This document shows, piece after piece, positions 3,970 through 29,540 of a DNA stretch of 32,000 nucleotides. The position numbers and the translations under genes were made by a program. The notes beneath the pieces are model-generated. The model saw only the letters and a program-made list of their open reading frames with translations, was not told the origin of the DNA and did not search any database. How positions within the stretch are numbered: position 1 is the first letter of the stretch; each line of letters begins with the position of its first letter. Location: assembly GCF_000341895.1 (NCBI RefSeq), contig NC_020409.1, positions 2,370,001 to 2,402,000 of the forward strand. The letters are read 5' to 3'. This stretch comes from Pseudodesulfovibrio piezophilus C1TLV30 (lineage in GTDB: Bacteria > Desulfobacterota > Desulfovibrionia > Desulfovibrionales > Desulfovibrionaceae).

Positions 3970-4043
3970 GAAAAAAATGATAAAATGTTTGATATCAGTG
4001 AGTTGAACGAATAAAAAAGAATACGGTGGTTTAAAATTTATGC

Positions 4044-4072
4044 TTGACACCGAATGAGCAAATGGATAGACA
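4044..4072 (+). promoter_or_regulatory. Possible promoter of the tRNA-Lys/tRNA-Glu pair
   Basis: A perfect TTGACA (4044-4049) is followed by a 17-nt spacer and a weak -10 TAGACA (4067-4072). An AT-rich stretch lies upstream, and tRNA-Lys starts at 4089. Confidence 0.3.
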
Positions 4073-4088
4073 TACGCTCCTTGAACGC

Positions 4089-4164
4089 GGGTCGTTAACT
4101 CAGTTGGTAGAGTATCTGACTTTTAATCAGAGAGTCACTGGTTCGAACCCAGTACGACCCACCA
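4089..4164 (+). tRNA. tRNA-Lys (anticodon UUU), CCA encoded
   Basis: I folded the cloverleaf by hand: acceptor GGGTCGT/ACGACCC, D arm ACTC/GAGT, anticodon stem TCTGA/TCAGA with loop CTTTTAA, T arm ACTGG-TTCGAAC-CCAGT. Length is 76 nt. Confidence 0.95.
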
Positions 4165-4168
4165 TCGC

Positions 4169-4244
4169 GTCCCCATCGTCTAGTGGTCTAGGACTCTGGC
4201 CTCTCACGCCGGCAACAGGGGTTCAAACCCCCTTGGGGACGCCA
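4169..4244 (+). tRNA. tRNA-Glu (anticodon CUC), CCA encoded; integration target of the island
   Basis: The fold is acceptor GTCCCCA/TGGGGAC, anticodon stem CTGGC/GCCGG with loop CTCTCAC (U33, anticodon CTC, A37), and T arm AGGGG-TTCAAAC-CCCCT. Length is 76 nt. Its 3' 44 nt are repeated at 29486-29529. Confidence 0.9.
4201..4244 (+). repeat. Left att core (3' 44 nt of tRNA-Glu)
   Basis: Identical to 29486-29529. Identity stops 1 nt upstream (C versus T). Confidence 0.9.
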
Positions 4245-4282
4245 TGAATTTCAAGCGGTTAGAGAACGTTTGTTTCTGCCGC

Positions 4283-4321
4283 GTCAGAACGGAAACGGTT
4301 TCGGAAACGGTTTGTTCTGAC
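4283..4321. promoter_or_regulatory. Candidate integrase/Xis arm-type binding sites (left arm)
   Basis: The sequence is GTCAGAAC-GGAAACGGTTTCGGAAACGGTTT-GTTCTGAC. An 8-bp inverted repeat brackets two tandem GAAACGGTTT(C) units. Nearly the same tandem, GGAAACGGTTTCGGGAACGGTTT, occurs at 29393-29416 inside the other island end. Confidence 0.45.
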
Positions 4322-4331
4322 TTCCATATTT

Positions 4332-4364
4332 AAACCGCCCTTAGCTAATCGCTTTGGGCGGTTT
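4332..4364 (-). terminator. Possible terminator hairpin overlapping the integrase 3' end
   Basis: The stem is AAACCGCCC ... GGGCGGTTT (9 bp), followed on the minus strand by TTTAAATAT. Confidence 0.35.
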
Positions 4365-5439
4365 TCATTTTGATCACTTTCCCCCCTCTTCCGCTTAAAG
4401 ACTCCAAAGCGGATCGTGTCTCTTCAAGTCCCAAGGTTTTCAGATACCTCTCGGTCGTGCTTGCACTCTTGTGGCGCAGGATCGCCTGAATGACGCTAAC
4501 AGGATGACCGAGCCTGAAAAGGATGGAAGCTGTCAGGTGTCTTATCCCGTGGAAACCGAAGGGTTTTACCTCGGCTTTTCTGCACAGTCTTTCCATGAAC
4601 TTTTGGCGATACCGAAAAGGGTTGCCAAAATGGCCACGGCAAAACTTGTAGTCTTCTTCGCAAACGAAGACATACGCACTTTCTTTGAACGTGCGATTTT
4701 CCCACCACCAAAGAAGCTCTTTCTTCAGCTCTTCAGTCATAGGAAGCCAGTCATACTCTAGCGTTCCTCCTTGTCTCTTTCTGGTTGCGAGGCGAATACG
4801 ATTGCTTCCGAAATCAATGTCTTCCCAAGCCAAGCGGAACACCTCTCCTCTTCTGGCTCCCAGATGGAGGAAGACGGTGAGCATGACTTTATCCTGTCCA
4901 GAAGTCAGATGGTATATTTTCCAAAAGTCTTCTTCTGGCGGGACATACCTTGGAGTTCTTACTTCAGGGAACTTGTCTACTAGGCAGGGGTTGGGTTGAG
5001 GCATGCCGCGATAGCGTATTCCCCAATTCCAAGCCGCCACTAAATTCTTTCTATCCTTATTGGCTGCATAGCCGGATCTGGCTTCATATTGAACTTGAAG
5101 CACATTCAAAACAATGCCTGATGTCAATCTCTCCACTGGGGCAGCGGGATCTATCATAGGCTTTCCTTTGCTGTTTTTTACGCCAAAAAATTCCTTGAAC
5201 GTCTTTCTTTTTTCTCCGTAGGTTTTTGTTGAGAACTTACGAGCAAAGTCCATATAATCCTGAGTCCATTCACCCAGTGAATAGGCCGTGTCTGTCTTTG
5301 ACCAGTCCACCTGCCTTTGTTTGGTTTCCCAAGCGAGAGCGTCCGTTTTTGTGTCGAACAGCTTCGTCTTGATTTCTCCTTGCTTTTGAACCCTCCCTTT
5401 CCAACGAATTCGCCCATTCCTCTTGATTTTTGAGGGCAT
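4345..5439 (-). CDS. int: Tyrosine recombinase / phage-type integrase
   Basis: The 364-aa ORF has a strong SD (AAGGAGG). An N-terminal arm-binding-like segment reads GRIRWKGRVQKQGEIKTKLFDTKTDALAWE. The catalytic signature is LGARRGE ... HGIRHL ... LRHKSASTTERYL (R, HxxR, H, Y). It is adjacent to the tRNA att site. Confidence 0.95.
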   Translation of the reverse strand: MPSKIKRNGRIRWKGRVQKQGEIKTKLFDTKTDALAWETKQRQVDWSKTDTAYSLGEWTQDYMDFARKFSTKTYGEKRKTFKEFFGVKNSKGKPMIDPAAPVERLTSGIVLNVLQVQYEARSGYAANKDRKNLVAAWNWGIRYRGMPQPNPCLVDKFPEVRTPRYVPPEEDFWKIYHLTSGQDKVMLTVFLHLGARRGEVFRLAWEDIDFGSNRIRLATRKRQGGTLEYDWLPMTEELKKELLWWWENRTFKESAYVFVCEEDYKFCRGHFGNPFRYRQKFMERLCRKAEVKPFGFHGIRHLTASILFRLGHPVSVIQAILRHKSASTTERYLKTLGLEETRSALESLSGRGGKVIKMKTAQSD

Positions 5440-5629
5440 TATTCCTCCTTAGAGCATCAACCACATTTCTTTCAAAGAATAGGATGCGCCCTTTGGGGCC
5501 TGTGGGCTGAATTCCACCGAGCTTTTCAAAGTGCTTTCGCACCGTTTCTTTATCAAGCCCCAGGAAGCTTGCGACCTCTTTGGTCGAAAGTCTCTTCCCA
5601 AGTTCTTGACTCAAAATATCGAATGTCAT
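5270..5629 (-). CDS. xis: Excisionase / AlpA-like helix-turn-helix protein (3' end uncertain)
   Basis: An SD (GGAGAAGG) precedes the ATG at 5629. The N-terminal 60 aa, LSTKEVASFLGLDKETVRKHFEKLGGIQP..GRILFFERNVVDAL, resemble the excisionase-type HTH. The ORF continues 170 nt out of frame into the integrase gene. Confidence 0.6.
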   Translation of the reverse strand: MTFDILSQELGKRLSTKEVASFLGLDKETVRKHFEKLGGIQPTGPKGRILFFERNVVDALRRNNALKNQEEWANSLEREGSKARRNQDEAVRHKNGRSRLGNQTKAGGLVKDRHGLFTG

Positions 5630-5722
5630 TAGCCTTCTCCCACAGTTGATGCTGTTTACTCAGAGAAGGGCGACAAAATCTGTCGCACAACGACAGTGTA
5701 CTTTTTTAGTCCAATGAGAAAC

Positions 5723-6312
5723 CCCCCAGCTCTGCTGGGGGACCAGTAAAGTTTGACTTATGCGGGAGTAATATAAAGCCTCTCCTTGTGAGCTGCTCAG
5801 AGTGAGCAGAGGAGAGGCTCTATGAAGTGCAATTCAAGCCTATGCCATACAAAATGGGACTGCAAGTATCATGTTGTGTGGATACCGAAATGTCGGCGTA
5901 AGGTATTGTTTGGCAAGTTGAAAAACTACTTGGGCGAGGTGTTCCACAAGCTCGCACGTCAACGTGAATGTATGATTTTGGAAGGGCATTTATGCATTGA
6001 TCATGTGCATATGTACATCGCCATTCCTCCCAAATACTCTGTGGCACAAGTAGTTGGTTATATAAAAGGTAAGAGCGCAATACACATAGCGCGTGAAGTC
6101 CAAAATCGCGCAAGGGGATTTGCAGGGCAAAGCTTCTGGGCGCGTGGTTACTATGTGACCACGGTTGGACGAGACGAAAAGGTAATAAGGGAATACATCC
6201 GCAAACAAGAACATGAAGACAAGCGGGTGGAGCAGTTGAAATTCCGCCTTTAGGCGGTTCTTAAAGCCACTTTGAGTGGCTCACAAGCTCAAGCCCCCGG
6301 CTTTGCCGGGGG
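5723..6312 (+). mobile_element. IS200/IS605-family insertion sequence (tnpA only)
   Basis: Related subterminal hairpins lie at both ends: CCCCCAGC-TCT-GCTGGGGG (5723-5741) and CCCCCGGC-TTT-GCCGGGGG (6294-6312). A long hairpin at 5778-5818 lies just before the tnpA start, as in IS200. The exact ends were not determined. Confidence 0.7.
5822..6253 (+). CDS. tnpA: IS200/IS605 family Y1 (HUH) transposase TnpA
   Basis: The 143-aa ORF carries WDCKYHVVWIPKCRRKVL, the HUH motif in IDHVHMYIAIPPKYS, and the catalytic Tyr region FWARGYYVTTVG. Confidence 0.9.
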   Translation: MKCNSSLCHTKWDCKYHVVWIPKCRRKVLFGKLKNYLGEVFHKLARQRECMILEGHLCIDHVHMYIAIPPKYSVAQVVGYIKGKSAIHIAREVQNRARGFAGQSFWARGYYVTTVGRDEKVIREYIRKQEHEDKRVEQLKFRL

Positions 6313-6347
6313 TGTTATGACTTCTTGAGCATGAGGTTCTTTCTGAT

Positions 6348-7814
6348 ATGAATGAAGATAATAATTTGATTTTAAGAGAAATATTGCAAGGCAGAACCGC
6401 CTGGATTCAACAGCAATTTGTCGCTAATTTTTTGCAGGGGCATATTGCGGGGTTCAATCCCAAGACGGGGCTGACTGTAAATCGGATGTATACTCACGCG
6501 AAGCCGGAATTTTCCTGCTCATATATCGAGGCGTATCTTCACAAGCCAATTGTTAGACTTGCGGCAACGCCAATGGCTGAGCCCGCCGTGATAGGGAATT
6601 ATGAGCAGGTACGTCCCGACTATGCAAAAGCCCAATCGAGGAGGCTGCAACAAGGAGCCCCTCTAAAGGGGCAAGTCCTTCTGAGGGAGCCGCCTAGAAG
6701 TTATAATCAGTACGGGAAATGCAGAATAGACTTTGGGATCGGCGTCGAGTTCCCTGTCTTATTTTTTGAATTAGATAGTCGAAAAACAAAAGCAATCAAG
6801 GCTATAAAGAGTGGAGAAAGTGTTGTCTTAACATATCCATATAAACGGATAGGATATTTCACGAAGCAGGCAGAAGCGACGGTCCTCGTCACTAATGATC
6901 CATACATGGGCATTATCGTCTCTATGGAGTGTGAAAAACGCTATTTCCGTGGAGTTAACAAGGCCTTGCTAAATGCAGCGAAGCAGTTCGCCCAACAGAA
7001 TGGGCTCAGCCTTGGATATGAAGAAAGGCACATTCTTTTTGAGGAGCTTGTGTTTGCATATTCGCTTCATGCGAATGATGGGTTTGCAGGGTACTCATCG
7101 CCTACCGAATACACTCACATACAACAGGGGGTTCGTGCATATTTGTATGACTTCATCCTAAATCTGCTCTTTGACAAAGAAGAGGCAGTTGGTCTGTTGA
7201 AAGTGCTTGAGGACAACGGTAAAGCCGAGCCCACCTATGCTCCTCCGAGCAACAATCTCTTTATTAGAAAAAATGGGCAGTGCAGAATCAAGTATCAAGG
7301 TGAAGAAATTACCACTAAAGATTATAGCGGCATGGACTACCTTCAAACAATTCTAAACTCCCAGGATAAAATGACATATCTTGAGATAATGCAATCGACA
7401 AGGGTAGTGGATTTAGTGGCAATTAAATCGGAACGTCACTTGTCTGACCATGAGAGTGAGGCTGTATCATTTGAGTCGTACACCGAAAAAATTGAAGAGC
7501 TGCAAGAAGACTATTTATGTGCAAAGGATAAGGGCGACTTCCAAGAGATGGATGCTATTGAAATAGAAATCGAAAACTTCACAAAGATAGTAGAAGAAAA
7601 CAAGCACGATGTCGCTGTACGAAACTCGCAGCTTAAAAAGATTAGAGACGCTGTGGCGGTAGCAATGGAGAGATGTGAAGAAAGGATTGAAGTCCTAAAT
7701 CCACAGCTTGGCACCCACCTGCGCGAAAGCCTCGTTAAGATTACCACGCCTGGGAGCAGAGTGGTTAGGATTGCATACAGACCTAAACAGCCGACAAAAT
7801 GGGAAAAGGGGTAG
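6348..7814 (+). CDS. Hypothetical protein, 488 aa, C-terminal acidic coiled-coil-like region
   Basis: A long ORF in a low-GC block with no opposing ORF of comparable length. I recognise no motif. It begins 36 nt after the IS right-end hairpin. Confidence 0.6.
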   Translation: MNEDNNLILREILQGRTAWIQQQFVANFLQGHIAGFNPKTGLTVNRMYTHAKPEFSCSYIEAYLHKPIVRLAATPMAEPAVIGNYEQVRPDYAKAQSRRLQQGAPLKGQVLLREPPRSYNQYGKCRIDFGIGVEFPVLFFELDSRKTKAIKAIKSGESVVLTYPYKRIGYFTKQAEATVLVTNDPYMGIIVSMECEKRYFRGVNKALLNAAKQFAQQNGLSLGYEERHILFEELVFAYSLHANDGFAGYSSPTEYTHIQQGVRAYLYDFILNLLFDKEEAVGLLKVLEDNGKAEPTYAPPSNNLFIRKNGQCRIKYQGEEITTKDYSGMDYLQTILNSQDKMTYLEIMQSTRVVDLVAIKSERHLSDHESEAVSFESYTEKIEELQEDYLCAKDKGDFQEMDAIEIEIENFTKIVEENKHDVAVRNSQLKKIRDAVAVAMERCEERIEVLNPQLGTHLRESLVKITTPGSRVVRIAYRPKQPTKWEKG

Positions 7815-7969
7815 CTCAAAATATCGGACCACCCTAGGTAAATTTTACCTGGCATACAGGCTATTGCCGCAACCTGCTTGCAGATGGATTAATTGACATC
7901 CTTTCTTATTTTATTCTGATGAGTGCATTTTTAACCACATTGGGCAAACCAAACGGTCTGCGTACTAGC

Positions 7970-7999
7970 AAGAGCCGCAAGCATGCGCTTGCAGCTCTT
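7970..7999. terminator. Hairpin between convergent genes (probable terminator)
   Basis: The stem is AAGAGC(C)GCAAGC-ATGC-GCTTGC(A)GCTCTT, followed on the plus strand by TTCTTT. It lies 4 nt beyond the stop of the minus-strand microprotein gene. Confidence 0.5.
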
Positions 8000-8003
8000 T
8001 TCT

Positions 8004-8192
8004 TTACGAAGCCCGAACGGTCAGCTTACCGTCGTCGTCCGTTTCTTCTTCGGTTTCATCCTCAACCTCTTCCATTTCGTCCTCATCGGTCTCAATAGAA
8101 CGCGGATTGTCATCCTCGTCCATAGCAAAGACGCCGGTAACTGCCAGTATGCCCACAGCCACTCCGCCGATAAAAGTCCAGAATTCTCTCAC
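8004..8192 (-). CDS. Membrane microprotein with a highly acidic C-terminal tail (62 aa)
   Basis: GTG start lies 6 nt after an AAGGAG SD (8199-8204). One TM helix (FWTFIGGVAVGILAVTGVFA) is followed by DEDDNPRSIETDEDEMEEVEDETEEETDDD. It is the last gene of the AAA+/vWA operon. Confidence 0.55.
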   Translation of the reverse strand: MREFWTFIGGVAVGILAVTGVFAMDEDDNPRSIETDEDEMEEVEDETEEETDDDGKLTVRAS

Positions 8193-8207
8193 GTTTTTCT
8201 CCTTGGT

Positions 8208-8543
8208 TTAGATTTCGAATTCCGAGCCGCATTGATTGCAGCGATATTCAGAGATGACATGCCGGTCGATATGCTCACCGACCTGGTTGCCAACTGCAGA
8301 GCCTGCAAAGAAGCCAGCTAAGGCCCCGGCCAGCCCTCCCGCAAGAAGGCCAAGCCCGGTACCTACGACCGGAATGACCGAGCCGATGACCGCGCCCGTG
8401 ACTGCGCCAGAGGACGCGCCGTAGTATCCACAAGCTCCACCGGCGACTCCTCCAACCGCCGTTCCGATTTTCTGGGTGGTGTTGACCAATACGACGTGAA
8501 TCGAGCTGTCACAGGTCGGGCATTTGGGGATCTCAGTGTCCAT
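8208..8543 (-). CDS. Split zinc-ribbon protein with a central glycine-zipper membrane segment (111 aa)
   Basis: An SD (GAGGA) precedes the ATG. CPTC (N-terminal) and CNQC (C-terminal) flank about 70 aa of G/A-rich GxxxG repeats (GTAVGGVAGGACGYYGASSGAVTGAVIGSVIPVVGTGLGLLAGGLAGALAGFFAGSAVG). Confidence 0.7.
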   Translation of the reverse strand: MDTEIPKCPTCDSSIHVVLVNTTQKIGTAVGGVAGGACGYYGASSGAVTGAVIGSVIPVVGTGLGLLAGGLAGALAGFFAGSAVGNQVGEHIDRHVISEYRCNQCGSEFEI

Positions 8544-8566
8544 GTTTTCCTCGTGATTGTGGTAGG

Positions 8567-10156
8567 TTATTTAATGAGCGCACCCCGCAGCATGCCGAAC
8601 ATGGCCGGGGCTAACTCGGGCAGGTCGTTGATGGTACGGCTGTGATGGGGAAGCAGTTGGGTGATGGCCTCGGACAGGATGCCCAGACCGTAGATCTCGA
8701 CGCCGAAACGCCTGCCTTCTTCAATGGCATCGAGTGCCACGTTGAATGAATCAGGATCACCGTCTGTCAGGAGCAAGACGATCTTTCGCGATTCGGAGAG
8801 CGGCATCATCTGTTGCAGCACCCACCAAAAGGCTTCGCCGAGCGGCGTGCATCCTGTTGCGCTGACGGCGAAGTTGTCATGCAACCTTTCACCGTGCTTC
8901 AGGATTGGGCAGATCGTAGGACCACTATCGTTGCCATTGCCTCCATCCGTCGGAGTGCCAGCCGGAAAAGCTGTAACGCCGACGTTGATCCCGTCGATGG
9001 CTGCCAAGGCTGTAGCCACAGCATGGCAAACCTGAGTGGTCAGCTTGATGCGGCGTCGCATGGAACCAGAGCAATCAAGCAGGATGTGGACGGCTGTGTT
9101 GATCCCAACTTTGCGCCCATCACGTCTGAAGACGCGAGCATCTGCCACCGACAATCGGTGCAGTTGTCGTGCGTCCAGTCGGCCATGGCGTCCGATTTTG
9201 GTTCGTTTCAGCACTGATGATTGCAGCAGTCCCTGGAGTTGCGTCCTTAGGGCGATCGACGCCCGCTTTGTTGCAGTAGCGTCTTCCGGTGCTATCGGCT
9301 TCGTGGTCTTGTTGCCCAACTGCGCCACACGCAACGACTCATTCAAGTCAGACGGTGTTTCCTTGTTCAAGCTCTCGGCCAACCGGTCTCCCAGGTCAAA
9401 CGGCAGCTCATTTTCATCGATACTCAGCAGACACTCCAGCAGCCGCCTTGAGACCTTAGAAGGTATCCCATCAGGCGCACCGTTTTTGGCTGTCCTCTCT
9501 GACTTTGAGCCCCCATTTTGCTGGGGCTGAGAGGTCGTTTTATCTTTAAGAATAGAAACGACCTCTCTTGCGTACAAGATGCAATCCTGCGTGGAATCAC
9601 AACAAGCATACACCTTTTGCAAAACCAGATTCAGCCTCGCAATGAGACCGGGAAACTCCGTTTCGACAGATGCCCCGACCTGATCCCGCTGGCCGCCCAA
9701 CGAGGGTACATCCCACGCTCGCACCGACAGTAACAGCCAATTGAGAATGGCCATGGCCGGATCATCTGTTTGCTCGGAGTCATTGCCGAACAAATGCCGA
9801 ATCAACCAATTGAAGTTCTGGCGGCAACCAGGGAACAACCGGGCCAGCCGGTGTTCAACCCGCCAATCTTCAAACGTATTCCAGACGTGCATCTCAAGAG
9901 GCGTCAGGTTGGCAAGTTTCAGCCAATCGAAGCGGGTTTCTCGGATATGGGCTGCCTCGTGATCTACAAATCCACGAGCCAAACCGATGAGCGTTTCGTT
10001 GCATTCCAACGGCAGCGCAGGGAGATGGATAATGCTTCCATCAGTATAGGCCCCCTTGCCGCCGATGACGACTTTCACGCCATACTTGCGCCCAAGCACA
10101 GATGCCACCATTGGGAGCGATTTCATAAGCAATTGGTTCTTCATGACAATCACCAC
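8567..10156 (-). CDS. vWA-domain protein with N-terminal HExxH-containing region (CobT-like / MoxR-partner type)
   Basis: The 529-aa ORF has the MIDAS motif ILLDCSGSM (DxSxS), plus GCTPLGEA and VLLLTDGDPD. The N-terminal region contains VDHEAAHIRE (HExxH). It is encoded downstream of a CobS-like AAA+ ATPase. Confidence 0.85.
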   Translation of the reverse strand: MVIVMKNQLLMKSLPMVASVLGRKYGVKVVIGGKGAYTDGSIIHLPALPLECNETLIGLARGFVDHEAAHIRETRFDWLKLANLTPLEMHVWNTFEDWRVEHRLARLFPGCRQNFNWLIRHLFGNDSEQTDDPAMAILNWLLLSVRAWDVPSLGGQRDQVGASVETEFPGLIARLNLVLQKVYACCDSTQDCILYAREVVSILKDKTTSQPQQNGGSKSERTAKNGAPDGIPSKVSRRLLECLLSIDENELPFDLGDRLAESLNKETPSDLNESLRVAQLGNKTTKPIAPEDATATKRASIALRTQLQGLLQSSVLKRTKIGRHGRLDARQLHRLSVADARVFRRDGRKVGINTAVHILLDCSGSMRRRIKLTTQVCHAVATALAAIDGINVGVTAFPAGTPTDGGNGNDSGPTICPILKHGERLHDNFAVSATGCTPLGEAFWWVLQQMMPLSESRKIVLLLTDGDPDSFNVALDAIEEGRRFGVEIYGLGILSEAITQLLPHHSRTINDLPELAPAMFGMLRGALIK

Positions 10157-10250
10157 AAGCCATGGCTATCGATCTGATGATACACCGGTTCAGGAACGAA
10201 CTTGGCCTTGCTAGGCTTCTTTTCAGGAATCGGCGGAATCGTATCCGCGA

Positions 10251-11108
10251 CTAGACCGGCCAGAATTTCGGATGAGTCCTGCCATCCAGAATTTTCTGAC
10301 CATGAGCAACAAGCGTAGTAGGATCACGAAGCAGCGAGACAACGCCTTGCAGCATCACCAGGGCACTCCCCTGAATATGCCCGCGCTTGGGCACACGGTT
10401 GAATGCCGTCTCCAGCAAATCTACCACCGGCACCACGCGAGGCTCAACAAAGCTCAGACCTGCCAGCTTGCCATGGATGGAACGCAAAGGGGAAAGCGCC
10501 TTGTGCGTCACCTTGTCTTTGCCCTCGAAGCATCGCTTCCAGGTGTCGGCAGCAGCCTTGCCAACCTCATCGAAGAGTGTGCCGCCAAGCTCATTGACCT
10601 CATCCTGCAGACCATGCCCTACGGCATTGTCCGTAGGCGGCAGCAATTTGAAAAATTGCCACCTAAAGCCCAACCGATTACGGACATAATCCGCACTCAC
10701 TGAAGACGAGCCGATCAAGCTTTCCCAGCCAGGATGCTGCACGATCCAGTTTTTGACGGCCTCATCGTACCGATTAAGGAATTGCTCTTTCGCATTCAGG
10801 AAGTCGTCCCGAATGGTAGTCAGTTCGGCCACGATCTCATCGGCCTTGTCTTCTGGAATACCCCAGCCGCCCAGAAAACGGACGCCGGTCCGATCCAACA
10901 GACTCACGGCGCGGGCCTTTAATGTACCGAAAATCCGCAACTCCCTGGGGTCGCGAATCTTTTTACTGCCAAGCGAAGCCAGTTCCTCCGGCGGCAACTC
11001 AGCACCACCAAAGTCGGCATGCGTCAGCTTCTTGCGTGCCGTCCAGATCTTCACATCGAGATTCAGAGCAATCAGGTTGTCGAGAATAGTAATATCCGTA
11101 TTCATCAT
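10251..11108 (-). CDS. Hypothetical protein, middle gene of the AAA+/vWA trio (possibly DUF3150-like, from memory only)
   Basis: The 285-aa ORF has a start that overlaps the AAA+ stop (ATGA at 11105-11108). I see no catalytic motif. The family assignment is a recollection of AAA+/DUF3150/CobT-like trios on plasmids and ICEs, and it was not verified. Confidence 0.7.
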   Translation of the reverse strand: MMNTDITILDNLIALNLDVKIWTARKKLTHADFGGAELPPEELASLGSKKIRDPRELRIFGTLKARAVSLLDRTGVRFLGGWGIPEDKADEIVAELTTIRDDFLNAKEQFLNRYDEAVKNWIVQHPGWESLIGSSSVSADYVRNRLGFRWQFFKLLPPTDNAVGHGLQDEVNELGGTLFDEVGKAAADTWKRCFEGKDKVTHKALSPLRSIHGKLAGLSFVEPRVVPVVDLLETAFNRVPKRGHIQGSALVMLQGVVSLLRDPTTLVAHGQKILDGRTHPKFWPV

Positions 11109-12094
11109 GATTTATTCTCCTCTTGTTGCGGGAATATGCGTTGCGCGAGCTCGTGTAGCACCGTCCGGGTCTCCGGCGTGGCGCGATAGGCGAGAGCGCG
11201 ATCAAGCGCATAGGTCACGGGTTGAATGCCCTGTCGGGCTAACGGTTGGAATCGGACGGTCAAATCCGCCCATCGGATGAGGGTACGAGTCGAGAAGGTG
11301 ACTTCAATGGTTTCGCGGTAATTGCCGTCCGCCTCACCCATGAAGAGCTTGCGCACCTCGTTGGCGTATTCCACCATCTTCGTACGCACTTCCTTGGGGA
11401 GATTCGGACCTTTACGATGGAGCAACTCCTGCTCATCCTCGGATTTGGGGTATCCGATTTCGCACAGCCAAAAGCGGTCCATGAAGGCGAGGTTTTGCCT
11501 TAATGTTCCTTGGTACAGGCCTGTTTCGTCTGTCCCGCCATTGGTGTTGGCCGTGGCCGCAAATCGAAACAGAGGATGCGGCTTGATGACTTCACCGCCA
11601 TTCTCAGGGATGCACAACGGATCGCCGTCCAGGATACTGTTCAAGCCAGCTGCAGTCGCCGGATCGAGCAGGTCGATTTCGTTGAGCAGGAAGAGACCAC
11701 CGAACTTCATGGCAAGCGCAAGTGGGCCGTACTGGAAGGCCATATTGGAATATTCCACGGTCAGGTGGCCGACCATATCGGGGAACTCTAGCCGACCATG
11801 CCCGGTGATATCGAAGACAGGGGAATTGAGTTTCGCGGCAAGCTGTTTGATGAGGCTCGTTTTGCCGCTGCCAGCCGGTCCGAACACATAGAGCGGGTCT
11901 GATGAGTCCATAAACCAGACAACAGCGTCACGACTGGAATCGTGGAACAGATATTCCGGGTTGAGGTCAGGGGTGAACGAAGATGCGGATGCAAAGCCGC
12001 GCACTGTTCGTTTAGAATTTTTACCGCTGAAAATTGCACCGGCATCATGTTCAGCAGGCTGCAACGCCTTAAATTCTTTGAGGATATCGCTCAT
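11105..12094 (-). CDS. CobS-like / MoxR-type AAA+ ATPase
   Basis: I placed the start at ATG 12094, 6 nt after an AAGGAG SD (12101-12106). Walker A is FGPAGSGKT and Walker B-like is LFLLNEID. The protein is collinear with cobaltochelatase CobS as I recall it (LNPEYLF, KPHPLFRFAATANT, TGLYQGTLRQNLAFMDRF, FSTRTLIRWA). Confidence 0.9.
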   Translation of the reverse strand: MSDILKEFKALQPAEHDAGAIFSGKNSKRTVRGFASASSFTPDLNPEYLFHDSSRDAVVWFMDSSDPLYVFGPAGSGKTSLIKQLAAKLNSPVFDITGHGRLEFPDMVGHLTVEYSNMAFQYGPLALAMKFGGLFLLNEIDLLDPATAAGLNSILDGDPLCIPENGGEVIKPHPLFRFAATANTNGGTDETGLYQGTLRQNLAFMDRFWLCEIGYPKSEDEQELLHRKGPNLPKEVRTKMVEYANEVRKLFMGEADGNYRETIEVTFSTRTLIRWADLTVRFQPLARQGIQPVTYALDRALAYRATPETRTVLHELAQRIFPQQEENKS

Positions 12095-12119
12095 AGTTTT
12101 CTCCTTAGGAAATAGAAAA

Positions 12120-12149
12120 GCCCCTGCTCCACATGAGTGGAGCAGGGGC
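12120..12149 (-). terminator. Intrinsic-terminator-like hairpin in the leader of the AAA+ operon (terminator or attenuator)
   Basis: A perfect 13-bp stem (GCCCCTGCTCCAC-ATGA-GTGGAGCAGGGGC) is followed on the minus strand by TTTTCTATTT, then the SD and ATG within 25 nt. Confidence 0.55.
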
Positions 12150-12382
12150 ATAATCCGCTTTGTATTGAGAGGCTAAAAAAGATTCATTCTTATATGAATA
12201 ATATATGTCTGAAATTTAGCGAAGAGCACATCCATGTCCAAAAGTTTTTTGAAAATGATTATGTTGCTCTTTAAACTTTGGGATCAATGTATACTTTATT
12301 GCTTTGGTAATACAAAATTAATAAAAGCTATATCTTACAGCACTGCAATAGAGGTCTGTCACTATAGCGAGAGGTGTTTCAC

Positions 12383-13300
12383 TTAGTTACAAAAGCCAGA
12401 TGATGAGCATTCGGCTGAAAGAGCGTGCTCGTATTTTCCGGATATATATGCGCCCGCTCCACAATACCCACTGCCAACATATAGTTTAAGTGTTCTATAA
12501 TCTTCGGAAAAATCAAAACTTGAACCTGGGATGCTGTCAAAAACCATTTTCCCATTTGATTCAACCAGCTTGCCTTCAACATCACAAGTTGAATATGTGG
12601 ACGGATTCATGCTCATTCCAAATGCAAAGTGCATTTTTTTGTCATTAATTATGACAAGCTCTGCATTCATGTCATTACTCTTGTAATAGTATGTGTGGAT
12701 TTTCCCATTGGGAAGCGAGGCAAAATATGGCTCCATCAATTCATTGACACGCTTCAACAAGGCAGCCTTCGATGGTTGGGCAGGGGCTGGAGCTGCCGTG
12801 GACGCGGGGGGAGTTTGAGAGGGGCCCTTTTTAGGCTCCGCTTCCTTAGGCAGTAAGATTGAAAAATCATTATTCGCGATTGCACAAAAGAGTAGTGGGC
12901 CTACTTCATTCTCTTTTTTTCCGCCATTTATTGAGGTGTAAGGTAAAATGCGCAGCATCCTCTCAATATCGATTGCGTATTCAAAAAGGAATCCAATTTC
13001 CATTGTTGAAATCGTCGAATTAATTTGAGGGTGCTTATCCTTTAAGCCTTCTACATCAAGGTTGATTGTTAGCAGTGTTTTCTCGATGCCGTCATTGTCA
13101 TTCAGAATTTTCCACTCGTAACTCTCTATGAAATCACAATCATCTAAAGCGTCAACTAGTGTCATACTCCTATCGAATTCACCGGAATTGCAAACCTCAG
13201 ATACAGGACTATCCCCAGCGACTTTTTCAACTTCTCCTGACGAGCAACCTAGAAGAGCGAAGAACGTGAAGATTGTCATAATACACATTGCTTTTTTCAT
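12383..13300 (-). CDS. Lipoprotein, hypothetical (305 aa)
   Basis: Signal peptide with a lipobox (FFALLGC/SSG), a P/A/S-rich linker (PSQTPPASTAAPAPAQPS) and a Cys-rich C-terminus. It sits in a low-GC block. Confidence 0.7.
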   Translation of the reverse strand: MKKAMCIMTIFTFFALLGCSSGEVEKVAGDSPVSEVCNSGEFDRSMTLVDALDDCDFIESYEWKILNDNDGIEKTLLTINLDVEGLKDKHPQINSTISTMEIGFLFEYAIDIERMLRILPYTSINGGKKENEVGPLLFCAIANNDFSILLPKEAEPKKGPSQTPPASTAAPAPAQPSKAALLKRVNELMEPYFASLPNGKIHTYYYKSNDMNAELVIINDKKMHFAFGMSMNPSTYSTCDVEGKLVESNGKMVFDSIPGSSFDFSEDYRTLKLYVGSGYCGAGAYISGKYEHALSAECSSSGFCN

Positions 13301-13497
13301 ATTATTACCTTCTGTTAATGGTTATAATTGTTTATAGCTTTCGCTTGGATGTCGCCAAGAATACTATCGCAGAAATAATAAAAATTACGGCAATATCTGA
13401 AAAATCTCCAAATGGAGACAGAAAAGATGAAAATAGCCACAATACCCCAACAAGCCCTCCTAAAAGGACAAGGCATCCCCAGAAACTCTTATTGCTA

Positions 13498-14586
13498 TCA
13501 GGCATACTGGGCCTCCCTATCTCGGTAATCCTGAGGAGGCTTGGGCTGCCACTCGTTGGCTTTCTGCTTGGCTTGGTTAACCTCTTCAGGCTTCAATTCT
13601 CTTTCCAGTGACTCTAGTAGCTTCGATGCTTCCTCACTGTGTTGTTTTTTTGAAGCGACCAAGGCGAGAGTGTACGCCATTCTCGGGTTTCGTTTTGTAA
13701 TCCATCCCTTGGCGTAGGAGTTTGCGATCCACAACTGTGATTCCGTATGGCCTTGAAGTGCTGCACGGCTTAACCAGCGCCATCCAATCTGGTCGTTTTG
13801 GTCAAGTCCATTTCCTGAGAGGTATAACTTTCCAAGATTAAAAATTGCTTCTGTTTGTCCCCGTTCAGCAGATGATCTCATAAATTCCAAGGCACGCTTT
13901 TCATTATACCACTCGTATCCATCCATTTGGTATAGTTCGCTGAGAACAAAGCAAACCTCAGGATCGTTGCTTGTGTCGCATGATTGTAGCTTTTCGAATG
14001 CCAGATAGTAGTCGCCAGCCTTAAATGCAGCTAACCCTTGAATAGGACTCTCGTCTGGTTTTATGGTTTCGTTTGTTGGTTTCTTTTCAACTTCATTGTT
14101 TGTCTGATTTATGTGTCCGCATGACGGGCATTTCCATGTCATTTGATTTTTGGCTACAGCGAAAAACCAAATAATCCCCCAAATAAGCGAGGTGGACAGT
14201 GCGAGTAAATTATGTAGGCAATAATTGGTCTTGTTTTTGGTCGGAATAACGTCTTCGTTGCAGTTCAAGCAAGTGAGTGTTTCTGGTGTTTTTTTCTCTT
14301 CTGATAAATCTACTGATTTATATATGAATTTTGCCACTAGATATGAGACACCGCCTCCAGTAAAAGTCCCTATAAACAACGGCATGAGTTTGCTAAAAGG
14401 CAAGCCCATATCGTTGATAACGTACGGTGCGCAAAATAATAGTCCAATATTTGCGATGAAAAAGAGCGAAGATATAACAAGGCCAGCCTTTCTCCAAGAC
14501 CCATATCCAGGATTTCGACGATAGTGATTCAGTGAACAAAAAGCTAAAACTATAACCATTCCCCACGCAATGCCTAACCAAAACAT
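13498..14586 (-). CDS. Membrane protein with split zinc ribbon and C-terminal Sel1-like repeats (362 aa)
   Basis: The ORF has N-terminal TM helices. CLNC and CPSC motifs flank another TM helix. Sel1-type repeats follow (RSSAERGQTEAIFNLGKLYLSGNGLDQNDQIGWRWLSRAALQGHTESQLWIANSYAKG). Confidence 0.7.
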   Translation of the reverse strand: MFWLGIAWGMVIVLAFCSLNHYRRNPGYGSWRKAGLVISSLFFIANIGLLFCAPYVINDMGLPFSKLMPLFIGTFTGGGVSYLVAKFIYKSVDLSEEKKTPETLTCLNCNEDVIPTKNKTNYCLHNLLALSTSLIWGIIWFFAVAKNQMTWKCPSCGHINQTNNEVEKKPTNETIKPDESPIQGLAAFKAGDYYLAFEKLQSCDTSNDPEVCFVLSELYQMDGYEWYNEKRALEFMRSSAERGQTEAIFNLGKLYLSGNGLDQNDQIGWRWLSRAALQGHTESQLWIANSYAKGWITKRNPRMAYTLALVASKKQHSEEASKLLESLERELKPEEVNQAKQKANEWQPKPPQDYRDREAQYA

Positions 14587-14884
14587 ATAGCCTCTCTGAA
14601 TCAGGATAAATGTTACATAACAAGCAGTAAAACACCTGTTTGCGTAAACAATTATTTAAAATAAGCATAGTGTTAATTTATTTTATACTACACATTCCAT
14701 ATTTCGTATTTGTGGAGCCTGTCGTGTAAAGACAGAGGACTCTGCCTAATTCAGAGCCTCAAAAATGTGGATGTCTATTAACACTCTTCAGATGCACATT
14801 TTGGCCTGTTTCAGATTCAAGGCAAGAAACCCATTCGTACTATCTAGTACAGATGCCTTAGAGGGCTATTTAAGCCAAAATAAA

Positions 14885-14911
14885 AGCCCCTCGGTAATGT
14901 GCTGAGGGGCT
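14885..14911 (-). terminator. Rho-independent terminator (minus strand)
   Basis: The stem is AGCCCCTC-(11-nt loop)-GAGGGGCT, followed on the minus strand by TTTTATTTT (complement of 14877-14885). Confidence 0.6.
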
Positions 14912-15219
14912 GAATTGGCTAACGGCTGAAACCAGATCATTGTGGCTGGAGTTTATAAGGAGCTAACGAGACGAACAAAACTCGTGGTAAACGCGTCGTT
15001 ACTGGAGCCCTGTTGAGTGGGATGGAGTTCCCCTGCCGTCTGGGACGCCTGTTCGCCTTTCAATGATTAATGGTAGCTCAACGGTCCTTTCGGGGGAAAA
15101 TCCGGTCACGACTCAACCCCTAACAGAGCGGCTTAATCAGAGCTTCCGTATCAGAAGCTGACGTTGACAGGATCGATATAACCTATTTGGGCCCAGATTA
15201 TTTATGGGTGGCTTAACCG

Positions 15220-15247: not shown

Positions 15248-15275
15248 GCTTCAGGTTTGTCTGTTTGTATAACAA

Positions 15276-15307
15276 AAAGCGCATGCCACCCTTATGGCAT
15301 GCGCTTT
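15276..15307. terminator. Bidirectional terminator-like hairpin upstream of hsdM
   Basis: A perfect 13-bp stem (AAAGCGCATGCCA-CCCTTA-TGGCATGCGCTTT) has T-rich tracts on both strands (TTTTTGTTAT on minus, TTTAATTGTCTTGTTTT on plus). Confidence 0.6.
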
Positions 15308-15406
15308 AATTGTCTTGTTTTCTATAAGCATAATTCGTGTTTCACATTTCCGTGCCCGTGTATTATGACTTTTCCCAATCGTACTGAATCTGAAAAGGAA
15401 AACGAA

Positions 15407-17059
15407 ATGACAGCGTTGGAACAATATGCGTTTCTCAAGAATATGGAGAAGCGGCTGTGGGCTGCCGCTTGCAAACTCCTGCCTTCTCTGGATGCGGCTG
15501 TGTACAAGCACGTCGTGCTCGGGTTGGTCTTTCTGAAATATGTCGGGGACAGCTTCGTGCAACGCCAGGAGGAGCTGAAGGCTCAGTTCGCTAACCCCGA
15601 CCATGAGTACTTTCTCGATGATGACCTGGAAGACGAGGAACTCCTGAACGACGAGTTGGAGGAGCGCGACTACTACACCGAGGCCAACGTGTTCTGGGTG
15701 CCGGAGAAAGGCCGCTGGTCCACGTTGCTCGAATGCGTGAAGCTCAACCCCGGCTCCAAGCTGCCCTGGGGGGCGGAATTCAAGAGCGTGGGCAACCTGC
15801 TGGATGATGCCATGGACGCCATCGAGAAGGAGAACCCGGTCCTCAAGAATGTGTTGAGCAAGGACTTTGCCCGGCTTCAGGTGGAAAGCTCCAAGCTGGC
15901 CGAGGTCATGGACCTGATCAACACCATTCCGTTTGAGCATGAGAGCCTGAAGGCCAAGGATATCCTTGGGCATGTGTATGAATATTTCCTGGGGCAGTTC
16001 GCGGCGGCGGAAGGCAAGAAGGGCGGCCAGTATTACACGCCCAAATCCATTGTTACGCTGATCGTTGAGATGCTCCGTCCCTACCAGGGGCGTGTGTATG
16101 ACCCCGCTTGCGGCTCAGGCGGCTTTTTCGTTTCCAGTGAGGAATTCGTCGAGGCCCATGGCGGCAAGGTCGGCAATCTGTCCATCTACGGGCAGGAATC
16201 CAACCCGACGACCTGGAAGCTGGCAGCCATGAACATGGCCATTCGCGGCATTGAGTTCGACTTCGGCAAGGAGCCTGCCGACACCTTTGGCAATGATCAG
16301 CATGCCGACAAGCGCTTTGACTACATCATGGCGAACCCTCCGTTCAACATCAGCGGGTGGGGCGCGAACAAGCTGGCTGACGACGTGCGCTGGAAATACG
16401 GCCTGCCGCCGGACAGCAACGCCAACTTTGCGTGGATGCAGCACATGATCCACCACCTTGGCCCCAAGGGCAAAATGGCCCTGCTGCTGGCCAATGGCTC
16501 CATGTCCACCGCGACCAACGGTGAAGCGGATATCCGCCGTCAGATTGTCGATGCGGATCTGGTGGAATGCATCGTGGCCCTGCCTGGACAGCTTTTCACC
16601 AACACGCAGATCCCGGCCTGTATCTGGTTCCTGAACAAGGACAAATCCAACGGCCAGAATATTGAGACATTGCGTGACCGGACTGGCGAGGTGCTGTTCA
16701 TCGACGCCCGGAATTGCGGCTACATGATCGACCGTGTCCTGCGAGACTTGGACCGCGAGAAAGACATCCTGCGGATAGCGCATACCCTGTTGAATTGGCA
16801 GATGGGCGACAAGGCCGAGACGCCGTATGCGGACGAGGCCGGATTCTGTGCCTCGGTCGAATTGAAGGATATCCGCAAGCATGACTATGTCCTGACGCCG
16901 GGCCGATATGTCGGCGCTCCCGAAGAAGTGGACGACGGCATCCCGTTTGGGGAAAAGATGGCGGTATTAACCTCGACATTGTTTGAGCAGATGGCCGAGG
17001 GGCAGCGGTTGGATGGCGAGATTCGAGCAAACCTGGAGAAGCTGGGCTATGCCGAATAA
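15407..17059 (+). CDS. hsdM: Type I restriction-modification system, DNA methyltransferase subunit M
   Basis: Start is at ATG 15407 (SD AAGGA). The HsdM N-terminal region reads LWAAACKLLPSLDAAVYKHVVLGLVFLKYV. The AdoMet motif I is DPACGSGGFF and the catalytic motif IV is NPPFN. Confidence 0.95.
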   Translation: MTALEQYAFLKNMEKRLWAAACKLLPSLDAAVYKHVVLGLVFLKYVGDSFVQRQEELKAQFANPDHEYFLDDDLEDEELLNDELEERDYYTEANVFWVPEKGRWSTLLECVKLNPGSKLPWGAEFKSVGNLLDDAMDAIEKENPVLKNVLSKDFARLQVESSKLAEVMDLINTIPFEHESLKAKDILGHVYEYFLGQFAAAEGKKGGQYYTPKSIVTLIVEMLRPYQGRVYDPACGSGGFFVSSEEFVEAHGGKVGNLSIYGQESNPTTWKLAAMNMAIRGIEFDFGKEPADTFGNDQHADKRFDYIMANPPFNISGWGANKLADDVRWKYGLPPDSNANFAWMQHMIHHLGPKGKMALLLANGSMSTATNGEADIRRQIVDADLVECIVALPGQLFTNTQIPACIWFLNKDKSNGQNIETLRDRTGEVLFIDARNCGYMIDRVLRDLDREKDILRIAHTLLNWQMGDKAETPYADEAGFCASVELKDIRKHDYVLTPGRYVGAPEEVDDGIPFGEKMAVLTSTLFEQMAEGQRLDGEIRANLEKLGYAE

Positions 17060-27573: not shown

Positions 27574-29250
27574 CTATGCCATATGAAACAAATGAGGGTT
27601 GATGATGCAGGTCCGACTAGCGCCACTTTTGTAGATTACCATATAGCCGTGGGCCTGTAGGAGCTTCAGCGCCGGAAGGGTTTCCTCCCTCTTCCAGTGC
27701 TTCGCCCGATATATCTCCCGCACGTTGACCTCATACTCGCCTCTTTCCACCAAGTATTCGAGAATCGCGTGTGCGCGGTCCAACTTGTCTTTCGCCTTAA
27801 GGTTAAGGGCAACCTTGGTGTGCTGTTCGAAGAACCATGCCAGTTGCATCCCGGCGCTAACGGACTCTTTAGTTATAAGGGTCTCGTAGGGCTCTCCGTT
27901 CTCACAACACCTGAGAATATGGATGATCGCGATCAACCTGAGACACGTACCGGCCAACTTTCGATAAAAGGCCTGAAGGACTGGCGGGTTCACATCGTTT
28001 GCCGCCTCAGCCTTTGCGTGCGCTTCAAGTCCATGCCAACCCTGAAGAGCTTGGTCCTCAAAGTGAAGCATGATGCCTTCATCCGTCGCACTAGAGGCTT
28101 CGAACAGCTTGTTGGCGGTCTCTTCAAGCCACTTCGTACTGCTGGTAGGTACTTCGGAAGTTCCGCCACCGACTGCAGGCGAATAAAGCTCTGGTGGCAA
28201 CAAGCACAGAAAACGGGCGACTAATCCATCATCTTGGAGGGCTTCTTCGCTGAGCAGCTTGACGGCTGTGCCATCTTGAGTCGCTATCAGGATTGTCACT
28301 GACGGATTCTCGATCCGAACAGGCTCTCCTGCCTTGGTGCTGGAAAATGATTCTCCGCCATACGCTTGCAAAAGGAAGTCGTCTCTATTGGCAGGGATCT
28401 TCTTAAGCGATCCAAGCTCGGCGGCTGCAATCGCAATTTTACCATTTTGCTTGGCCGCTTCTTTTTCCAACCCCTCAGGTGTAAACTTGAAGGTAAGCAA
28501 AACCGGCAAATACTGTTTGGCTGGTATGGATTTTTGAAGTTCGAGGATTTCTTGAGCCGCAACCTCTAAATCGCCTTCCTTTGCTGCGGCATTCTCTAAG
28601 GTTCGGATACGTTTTTTGATAAGCCTTTCAGTGGTTTCGAGAAGCTCTTTATTCTCGAAAAAGGACCCTTGAAGCCTTTTTTCGATTGCCATAATTGGCC
28701 TCAGAACTTCTTCCATGAGCGGAGACTTCATCTTGCCAGACAGCATCATTATCAAAAGGTAGAGAGTTACAAGTTCAGTGTGGTTTTTGTGCCGCATCAC
28801 TTTGAACTGTCCTCGCAGCAAGATGCTGACAAAACCTAACAGCAAAGCAACCAGTATCCCCGGATGCACAGCGAACGCTTTGGATAAGTCCTCGACCCAT
28901 TTTCGGGCACGGCCTGGGAGAGCTTCAATCGGGGCAAGGAAGTCTACAACTTGCCTTTGGGCGAGAGGGAAGATTTGCACAGTTTTGATCCATGCGTGCC
29001 ATCTGCTCTTGTCCAAGTTTTCTTGGTCCTCTAGGGCAAAGGTCAGTCTTTCTTTTTCCGCTTGCCTCAGAGCCTTTTCCTCGTTGTGTTGCGCGAGGTT
29101 AACTTTGATTGCGTCGGTTTGTGAAAGAGAGAAAGAGCTTCCATGATTGTAGTTAACTAGTGGAGCCGGTATTGGCGGGTCCTGCTCAATTATGGGGATC
29201 CTGTTGGGCCCCACACCTTTGAACTTCCATTCAGGTTCAGAATCTAACAT
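27574..29250 (-). CDS. YfjI / DUF3987-like island protein (function call from context and memory)
   Basis: The ORF spans 27574..29337. I placed the start at ATG 29250 (GGAG SD 8 nt upstream) rather than the TTG at 29337. It is a large soluble protein at the int-distal end of the island, followed by the YfjJ-like gene. Confidence 0.55.
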   Translation of the reverse strand: MLDSEPEWKFKGVGPNRIPIIEQDPPIPAPLVNYNHGSSFSLSQTDAIKVNLAQHNEEKALRQAEKERLTFALEDQENLDKSRWHAWIKTVQIFPLAQRQVVDFLAPIEALPGRARKWVEDLSKAFAVHPGILVALLLGFVSILLRGQFKVMRHKNHTELVTLYLLIMMLSGKMKSPLMEEVLRPIMAIEKRLQGSFFENKELLETTERLIKKRIRTLENAAAKEGDLEVAAQEILELQKSIPAKQYLPVLLTFKFTPEGLEKEAAKQNGKIAIAAAELGSLKKIPANRDDFLLQAYGGESFSSTKAGEPVRIENPSVTILIATQDGTAVKLLSEEALQDDGLVARFLCLLPPELYSPAVGGGTSEVPTSSTKWLEETANKLFEASSATDEGIMLHFEDQALQGWHGLEAHAKAEAANDVNPPVLQAFYRKLAGTCLRLIAIIHILRCCENGEPYETLITKESVSAGMQLAWFFEQHTKVALNLKAKDKLDRAHAILEYLVERGEYEVNVREIYRAKHWKREETLPALKLLQAHGYMVIYKSGASRTCIINPHLFHMA

Positions 29251-29392
29251 TCTTGATTCTCCTGGTTTGGGTTTGGACTGGCCACAGCAGCCAGCCTCAC
29301 CCCTACAAGGGCGACATTTCGTGTCGCCCTGCGACAAAGGAGATTTTTTTCATCAAAAAAGTATGAACACGCTCCCTCCATCATATGATGAA

Positions 29393-29485: not shown

Positions 29486-29529
29486 CTCTCACGCCGGCAA
29501 CAGGGGTTCAAACCCCCTTGGGGACGCCA
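29486..29529 (+). repeat. Right att core (orphan 3' 44 nt of tRNA-Glu)
   Basis: Identical to 4201-4244. No 5' half of a tRNA lies upstream. Confidence 0.9.
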
Positions 29530-29540
29530 AGAGAATTTCA

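Follow-up and report, generated by a model that had tools for sequence, protein, structure and literature searches.

In 2020 Roy et al. defined an operon of IncC plasmids, vcrx089-vcrx095, as hde (host defence evasion), in which vcrx089 encodes a protein of AAA_5+CbbQ_C architecture (PMC7498323). Deletion of vcrx089-090 cut IncC transfer 25-fold into Vibrio cholerae O395, a recipient with type I restriction-modification (R-M); the defect was rescued when both genes were expressed in the recipient and was gone in an hsdR mutant, and ssb-bet-exo (vcrx091-093) was found to repair CRISPR-Cas breaks (PMC7498323). The same deletion raised restriction 906-fold for EcoKI and 424-fold for EcoBI (Dimitriu et al., PMC11602122), and vcrx089_090 is among the multi-gene systems of AntiDefenseFinder (PMC11724313). 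Here we describe a related five-gene operon, g1 to g5, in a 32,000-nt stretch of Pseudodesulfovibrio piezophilus C1TLV30 (NC_020409.1, positions 2,370,001 to 2,402,000), the whole of which is called the window below. We favour the reading that this operon represents, in Desulfobacterota, a variant of the AAA+/DUF3150/vWA backbone module of conjugative plasmids, integrative and conjugative elements (ICEs) and small integrative elements, and that it probably serves its element, and not the host, in counter-defence or establishment upon entry into a new cell. Restriction evasion is the best-documented activity of the module's homologue. The trio itself is already known from plasmids; the variant is marked by the lack of a Vcrx090-like gene, by two added small membrane proteins and, in its relatives, by an ERF/RecE-like partner.

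A second described counterpart lies on pCAR1 (IncP-7), where the operon ORF100-109 includes the MoxR-type ATPase ORF101 and the VWA protein ORF103, and transcription was higher in the transconjugant than in the original host (PMC2642839). That 2009 study also noted that ORF101 and ORF103 are conserved in R478, Rts1, SXT and R391 (PMC2642839). ORF100-103 resembles our locus in joining a MoxR-type AAA+ protein with a CbbQ domain to a VWA protein, in a backbone operon that is upregulated in the new host; it differs in belonging to a proteobacterial conjugative plasmid and in that small membrane genes were not described for it (PMC2642839).

The five-gene operon and its counterparts on plasmids and ICEs

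The operon was first noticed in an unaided look at the sequence (the original prediction), which described five tightly packed, co-directional minus-strand genes. This observation is confirmed, with corrections to the g1 start, the g2 end and the g3 start. The genes and two associated features are as follows, with the open reading frame (ORF) given first for each gene.

g1: ORF 11105-12151, gene 11105..12097, minus strand; MoxR/CobS-class AAA+ ATPase, Vcrx089-like, 330 aa from the corrected start
g2: ORF and gene 10251..11108, minus strand; DUF3150 protein, 285 aa after truncation (relatives 320-340 aa)
g3: ORF 8567-10156, gene 8567..10144, minus strand; CobT-like protein, in which a low-complexity linker joins the N-terminal HExxH domain to a C-terminal vWA domain whose metal-ion-dependent adhesion site (MIDAS) is complete
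g4: ORF and gene 8208..8543, minus strand; 111 aa, with N-terminal CPxC and C-terminal CNxCG around an uncharged glycine-zipper stretch of about 60 residues
g5: ORF and gene 8004..8192, minus strand; 62 aa; a single hydrophobic segment, FIGGVAVGILAVTG, and then a tail of 39 residues, 20 of them acidic
Out-of-frame remnant of the g2 tail: 10153..10281, minus strand; ends in HQIDSHGLW and a stop, its frame-2 translation matching the C-termini of relatives
Terminator-like hairpin in the leader: 12120..12149, minus strand; 13-bp stem with 10 G-C pairs, then TTTTCTATTT

The stop of g1 and the start of g2 overlap by 4 nt as ATGA (11105-11108), and by ORF coordinates the gaps are 23 nt between g3 and g4 and 15 nt between g4 and g5, as first reported. 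Shine-Dalgarno (SD) sequences precede the three genes for which they had been proposed: AAGGAG 7 nt 5' of the g1 ATG, GAGGA before g4 and AAGGAG before the GTG of g5. All of the motifs quoted at the outset are present in the translations, namely GPAGSGKT, KPHPLFRFAATANT and TGLYQGT...MDRF in g1, and HEAAH, DCSGSM and LLLTDGDPD in g3. The g1 start had been placed near 12150. Comparison with relatives of 327-329 aa puts the true start at ATG 12097, and the 18 additional codons of the long ORF overlap the terminator-like hairpin (12149-12120). For g3 the start is probably ATG 10144, giving 525 aa.

Over 308 aa g1 shares 46.8% identity (E 6e-81) with the AAA ATPase at the vcrx089 position of the IncC plasmid pNDM102337; the record of this plasmid does not use vcrx names, and the equivalence is by gene position. 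The three core genes are widespread on plasmids. A tblastn search with DUF3150 found 1158 plasmids, 985 of them typed as conjugative; g1-like ATPases occurred on 1245 plasmids, of which 968 are conjugative, and g3-like proteins of full length on 932. Carriers of the trio include IncC, SXT/R391 and IncP-7 elements. Gene order was compared in six diverse elements (an IncC plasmid, the SXT/R391-family R997, a Pseudomonas IncP MOBH plasmid, and Comamonas, Rhodanobacter and Sulfuricystis plasmids), which share the succession AAA, usually one hypothetical gene, often ssb-bet-exo, DUF3150 and VWA; the Pseudomonas plasmid carries the trio without an adjacent recombinase. A megablast search of the operon against plasmids gave no match.

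Our locus thus has in common with the IncC hde operon and with SXT/R391 (Orf70 and neighbours) a 47%-identical AAA_5+CbbQ_C ATPase, DUF3150 and HExxH-vWA genes in identical order and strand, a mobile carrier, linkage of the module to an annealing recombinase and exonuclease, and a structured leader before the ATPase gene. It differs in that the window has neither a Vcrx090-like gene nor ssb-bet-exo (relatives use ERF and a RecE-like exonuclease), in the two small membrane proteins 3' of the vWA gene, and in its Desulfobacterota host and small integrative carrier. Put in terms of the module, the window holds the AAA_5+CbbQ_C ATPase, DUF3150, the HExxH-vWA protein and the mobile-element location, and lacks the neighbouring annealing recombinase and exonuclease, which are usual and not universal. 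In terms of vcrx089_090, a Vcrx089-like ATPase is present and a Vcrx090-like partner next to it is absent: homologue searches of the window (for Vcrx090, by tblastn) found no ERF, Bet, exonuclease or Vcrx090-like gene. The Vcrx090-like proteins of IncC, R997 and one Desulfobacterota-type locus (L014) have only weak pairwise similarity (E 3e-4 to 6e-4). A WGR domain was suspected in them by eye; Pfam and PHROGs gave nothing, and we make no claim of one.

With a reverse transcription primer at the 3' end of vcrx094, vcrx087, vcrx089 and bet were placed on one transcript (PMC7498323). We take vcrx094 to be the DUF3150 gene by position, because the DUF3150 gene comes after exo in the homologous IncC plasmid; the paper gives no description of vcrx094 (PMC7498323).

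The leader hairpin of g1 keeps its place, though not its sequence, among relatives. Its U-tract ends about 13 nt 5' of the g1 start codon, abutting the AAGGAG SD, and hairpins of differing sequence stand at the same position, about 20-25 nt 5' of the ATPase start, in five related loci (L012, L013, L003, L022 and L019). Among distinct metagenomic leaders, 12 of 48 have such a hairpin, compared with 39 of 2000 (2%) random windows. In L012 the hairpin occupies the 76-nt gap 3' of the exonuclease gene and leaves no space for a promoter, which suggests read-through control. Rfam matched no family in the operon, the leader hairpin included.

The core proteins and the lost DUF3150 tail

Pfam assigned g1 to AAA_5 (61.8 bits) and CbbQ_C (55.1 bits), and in the Protein Data Bank (PDB) its sequence matched the Midasin AAA region (166 bits) and CobS (86 bits), as well as CbbQ and NorQ. 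For g3 the Pfam matches to CobT, CobT_C and VWA were weak; a profile of the g3 family aligned with solved CobT (9uka_G, E 1.5e-25) over most of its length and with NorD at E 1e-12. In 11 aligned g3 homologues from two phyla the HExxH motif, the E-D-x-R-x-E motif that comes after it (E92/D93/R95/E97) and the MIDAS residues D357, S359, S361, T433 and D461 are invariant, and the vWA domain is the end of the protein in all 11. The matches of g1 and g3 to solved CobS and CobT types mark them as a CobS-CobT-type pair of hexameric motor and MIDAS adaptor, and by analogy the principle of ATPase ring plus adaptor known from CobS-CobT, NorQ-NorD and CbbQ-CbbO is likely to apply here. The pair differs from these systems in falling far short of the CobS and CobT equivalog cut-offs, in having no CobN, NOR or Rubisco client, in a third subunit, DUF3150, without a solved relative, and in the invariant HExxH of g3, to which the alignment with solved CobT does not extend.

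Despite these likenesses, which include the weak matches to CobS and CobT models, we regard a cobaltochelatase acting in cobalamin synthesis as ruled out for any practical purpose. g1 scored 81 bits against TIGR01650 (CobS; cut-off 558) and g3 26.7 bits against TIGR01651 (CobT; cut-off 759), the module is carried on mobile elements, and neither cobN nor any other cobalamin domain was found in the gene-sized window ORFs scanned with Pfam, nor cobN or cobalamin genes among the called genes of six related loci. The original prediction had likewise set this function aside and had seen no cobalamin genes in the window.

The g1 and g3 families are also known from phages: g1 matched phrog_249 (194 bits) and g3 phrog_1576 (106 bits), a likeness to the MoxR/metallopeptidase-vWA pair ('CobS/CobT') of T4-like jumbo phages. 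In the phage pair, according to the Aravind laboratory, the vWA protein has a metallopeptidase fused at its N-terminus (PMC7824862). A role for this pair in virion assembly was proposed. The locus described here differs in that it has no structural genes and in its DUF3150 gene, for which there is no PHROG family and which is nearly absent from phages, with one hit in 50,697 phage records (labelled as Salmonella and not an obvious phage) and one IMG/VR locus. A phage origin of the module was rejected on these grounds.

Pfam matched g2 to DUF3150 (334 bits) over the whole length of the model and to no other family. The family is of moderate size: 1474 of its clusters at 50% identity were counted in a set of 1.84 billion representatives. 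When PDB sequences were searched with DUF3150, there was no match. The AlphaFold2 model of P0012, a protein 92% identical to g2, has a predicted local distance difference test (pLDDT) score of 80.6 and is confident to residue 289 and disordered beyond; Foldseek of this model against the PDB returned nothing at E <=0.001 (best 0.37). Nearly all DUF3150 proteins have a long disordered, often acidic C-terminal tail with an aromatic or hydrophobic tip (alignment A1; loci L001, L002 and L015-L018). The tip is GLW in the Desulfobacterota clade and DDDxxFF or YF on IncC-type proteobacterial plasmids, and the acidic aromatic form resembles the C-terminal tip of the single-stranded DNA-binding protein SSB, which is DDDIPF. 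Possible docking sites for the DUF3150 tail are the MIDAS, the ATPase pore and host proteins that bind SSB.

It is this tail that the window copy has lost. A DNA alignment with four relatives (L012, L003, L013 and L005) revealed a 1-nt deletion in g2 between 10282 and 10281, and the frameshift replaces the last ~44 residues, with the conserved C-terminal tail, by 8 unrelated ones. In intact relatives the tail, whose motif is conserved in the clade, ends a few nt 5' of the g3 start; the frameshift accounts for the odd 94-nt gap between g2 and g3. With the DUF3150 tail lost and the ERF/exonuclease pair missing, the window copy is partly decayed.

One possibility, to which we give appreciable weight though we think it the less probable outcome, is that the operon is a non-functional remnant in this genome while the module family functions elsewhere. 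Besides the truncation, it would explain the absence of genes that most relatives keep (ERF in 17/19 related clusters and the exonuclease in 17/20; see below), and an IS200 transposase lies nearby. Against decay to a remnant, none of g1, g3, g4 and g5 is shortened and their motifs are intact, g2 retains the complete Pfam DUF3150 domain, and the deletion could be a sequencing error.

Relatives in Desulfobacterota

The comparison covered four genome loci, six loci from protein look-ups and 80 metagenomic loci (L024-L103). Metagenomic DUF3150 proteins were grouped at 90% identity into 38 clusters, and for each neighbour only clusters with enough flanking DNA were counted. An AAA gene lay upstream in 26/26 clusters and a vWA gene downstream in 27/27. 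The ERF annealing protein (phrog_155 at 1.4e-41) and an exonuclease of about 405 aa (a weak match, 3.8e-5, to phrog_434, RecE-like) occurred in 17/19 and 17/20 clusters, the trio nearly always coming after this pair in a parallel to ssb-bet-exo of IncC, and a weakly Vcrx090-like gene stood between the ATPase and DUF3150 genes in 6/26. DUF3987 or DUF927 primases and integrases recur around the module; its flanks change, with type I R-M, BREX, patatin, AbiC and dynamin-like genes, and in one Pseudodesulfovibrio locus (L003) a diversity-generating retroelement (DGR) system. A constant module among changing neighbours is the pattern of an element backbone amid cargo, and that the recombinase is swapped between phyla (Bet/lambda-Exo versus ERF/RecE-like) with the trio kept speaks for a connection in function with DNA entry or establishment. 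In several Pseudodesulfovibrio genomes, genes for two or three distinct DUF3150 proteins lie on one chromosome (P0033/P0036/P0045; P0017/P0020; P0047/P0048; P0015/P0024), which points to several related elements per genome.

The locus L003 (region 731-8604), from a Pseudodesulfovibrio metagenome-assembled genome, has the same five-gene operon directly after another MoxR-type system, DGR-like in arrangement, in which an AAA_5/bpMoxR ATPase is joined by an HRDC protein, two FGE-sulfatase-domain proteins and a reverse transcriptase; rnf genes lie on the operon's other side.

The near-constant company of an annealing recombinase and an exonuclease, though of types that differ by phylum, also fits a role other than counter-defence, that of an accessory machine in the handling of the element's DNA. 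Here the task of the AAA+/vWA pair would be to load ERF/exonuclease, SSB or primase onto single-stranded DNA as it comes in, or to recycle or activate them there. The DUF3987 and toprim primases nearby and the many DUF3150 acidic tails with an SSB-like aromatic tip agree with this. On IncC plasmids, however, deletions of ssb-bet-exo and of vcrx089-090 are separable, the one affecting CRISPR and the other type I evasion, and the latter effect is gone in an hsdR recipient (PMC7498323). The trio also occurs without an adjacent recombinase, both on the Pseudomonas plasmid and in the window, and we hold such a role to be unlikely, at about one chance in a handful.

Co-occurrence of all five genes, which the original prediction had treated as one architecture, held for the trio and failed for the small genes: g4 was found in 10/20 related metagenomic clusters and a g5-like gene in 7/20, the latter probably an undercount because the query is very short. 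g4 and a Vcrx090-like gene rarely stand together in the L024-L103 clusters (g4 only in 8, Vcrx090-like only in 3, both in 1, neither in 6). Both small genes were absent from the six proteobacterial plasmid and ICE loci examined. They are real genes nonetheless, as their low dN/dS against relatives (0.06-0.10 for g4 and g5, of which 0.07-0.09 for g5) indicates strong purifying selection. g4 is kept in nine Desulfobacterota loci and has nine homologues among 5.8 billion proteins, the distant ones P0006 and P0008 having no adjoining trio and being uninformative on function; its Pfam matches to zinc-ribbon and Gly-zipper families were sub-threshold, and from its sequence it is a probable membrane hairpin with a split zinc ribbon. 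g5 had no meaningful Pfam match, and g5-like small proteins are encoded 3' of the vWA gene in seven loci (L003, L004, L006, L014, L019, L021 and L022). The two proteins are clade-specific additions, probably membrane accessories and perhaps a tether or a regulator.

The integrative element and possible functions

The operon lies within a 25.3-kb integrative element delimited by a direct repeat of 44-47 nt of the tRNA-Glu 3' end, and the island first proposed, tRNA-integrated and carrying a type I R-M system and a viperin, was borne out by the repeats and by the genes found. Its features, and one ORF that overlaps the integrase gene, are listed below.

4201..4247, plus strand: attL, tRNA-Glu 3' end, left edge of the 25.3-kb element
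4345..5439, minus strand: tyrosine integrase
5270-5629, ORF overlapping the integrase: HTH_17 (excisionase-type) domain
5822-6253: IS200 transposase copy
15257-23202 and 23265-26296: type I R-M operon, in which a RhuM-family gene separates hsdM from hsdS and an AbiJ-like/Abi_C gene separates hsdS from hsdR, with the adjoining NERD and pVip genes
27574..29337, minus strand: DUF3987 primase/helicase-type replication protein (phrog_2373 DNA helicase)
29486..29532, plus strand: attR, direct repeat of the tRNA-Glu 3' end, 46/47 nt

The backbone consists of the tyrosine integrase, the HTH_17 protein, a YagK/YfjJ-type protein and the DUF3987 primase/helicase, a family that also flanks the module in two relatives (L019 and L021); no conjugation genes are in view on the element. 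G+C content is 55% in the operon (8001-12000) and 40-44% in its flanks (7001-8000 and 12001-15000), and together with the IS200 copy this shows the island to be a mosaic. The RhuM-family gene matched PADLOC PDC-S05 (461 bits), and beside the R-M operon are genes for a viperin-associated NERD protein and a pVip viperin (273 bits).

A second direct repeat of 27 nt (4287-4313 and 29390-29416; 93% identical), itself composed of GAAACGGTTT units, has one copy just within attL and the other just within attR; these inner repeats may be arm-type integrase/excisionase binding sites. Outside the island, on the minus strand, a c-di-GMP-I riboswitch (2149-2226; RF01051, 63.5 bits against a gathering cut-off of 35) lies upstream of a gene for a ShlB/FhaC-type two-partner secretion transporter (311-2068).

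Cargo of this kind could suggest a system that protects the host, and the original prediction leaned that way, proposing an uncharacterised defence system with the AAA+/vWA pair as infection sensor and g4, once freed, as the agent of membrane damage (abortive infection). The operon does lie in an island with type I R-M, RhuM, an AbiJ-like protein, pVip and NERD, g4 and g5 are conserved small hydrophobic proteins, and MoxR-vWA conflict systems have been predicted (PMC7159879). We nevertheless judge this quite improbable. In PADLOC-DB v2.0.0, g2-g5 had no match and g1 had P-loop-level similarity only (about 30 residues, with E no better than 1e-3). Some 1,100 plasmids, mostly conjugative, carry the trio as an invariant part of their backbone, without g4 or g5 in the six loci examined, and the would-be effector g4 is missing from half of the related Desulfobacterota clusters. 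The characterised homologue has the opposite phenotype, restriction evasion; the architecture is without the effector-like variation of conflict systems, and the module adjoins recombination and replication genes and not a variable cargo slot. A literature search on CobS/CobT and phage defence gave nothing relevant.

The vWA-MoxR ternary systems of Kaur, Burroughs, Iyer and Aravind (2020) share with our operon a MoxR ATPase, a vWA protein and a third protein encoded together, and a role in biological conflict. They differ in that their third protein is VMAP, iSTAND, FtsH or a beta-propeller by definition (PMC7159879), and here it is DUF3150; the vWA domain is C-terminal here, with no variable effectors after it, the architecture is constant, and g1 scored 12.8 bits against the bpMoxR model (cut-off 27). 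Membership was rejected on these defining features, the third component and the lack of C-terminal effector domains, and the loose analogy that the original prediction had drawn is all that holds. Its other suggestion, that such trios of plasmids and ICEs act in establishment or anti-defence, is supported by the 47% identity of g1 to the IncC ATPase, by the vcrx089-090 phenotypes and by the conserved gene context.

Returning to the backbone-module reading, a mechanism can be sketched by analogy. A hexamer of g1 would bind the CobT-like g3, as in CobS-CobT, NorQ-NorD and CbbQ-CbbO; the MIDAS of g3 would grip an acidic residue of a client, ATP hydrolysis would remodel that client, and the invariant HExxH domain may also cleave it. 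Two candidate clients are a nuclease complex of the host on incoming DNA, such as a type I restriction enzyme, and DUF3150 itself, which would then have the place of working subunit that CobN has with CobST. In its most specific form, which we offer as a speculation with the odds clearly against it, the core trio would use ATP to disassemble or cut type I restriction complexes, or other host nucleases that track along DNA, on DNA that has just entered, with DUF3150 recognising the target and, in this clade, g4 and g5 positioning the trio at the DNA entry site.

Several points weigh against the reading that we favour. The window has no Vcrx090-like gene, and the published phenotype is that of vcrx089 and vcrx090 jointly; the published restriction-evasion phenotypes concern vcrx089-090, not DUF3150 or the vWA protein. 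By sequence comparison g1 is only 47% identical to the characterised ATPase, and that across phyla. With no ERF/exonuclease pair and a frameshifted DUF3150 gene, the window copy may not function. The element has a type I R-M system of its own, which an anti-type-I function would have to spare, and its defence cargo makes the context taken by itself compatible with a defence role. The mechanism proposed is drawn purely by analogy.

Multidrug resistance is spread by the IncC and SXT/R391 elements, on which the vcrx089-090 genes are found. Comparison with Desulfobacterota shows that the unit common to two phyla is AAA+/DUF3150/vWA, with Vcrx090-like genes optional, and that the trio travels with an annealing recombinase and exonuclease even when these are replaced by unrelated types. 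This points experiments to DUF3150 and the HExxH-vWA protein. It also advises caution in the mining of defence islands, as genes beside R-M and viperin can be element backbone. Known anti-restriction strategies include DNA mimics and methylases. If the trio does dismantle restriction complexes, it would represent an enzymatic class of anti-restriction, unlike either of these strategies.

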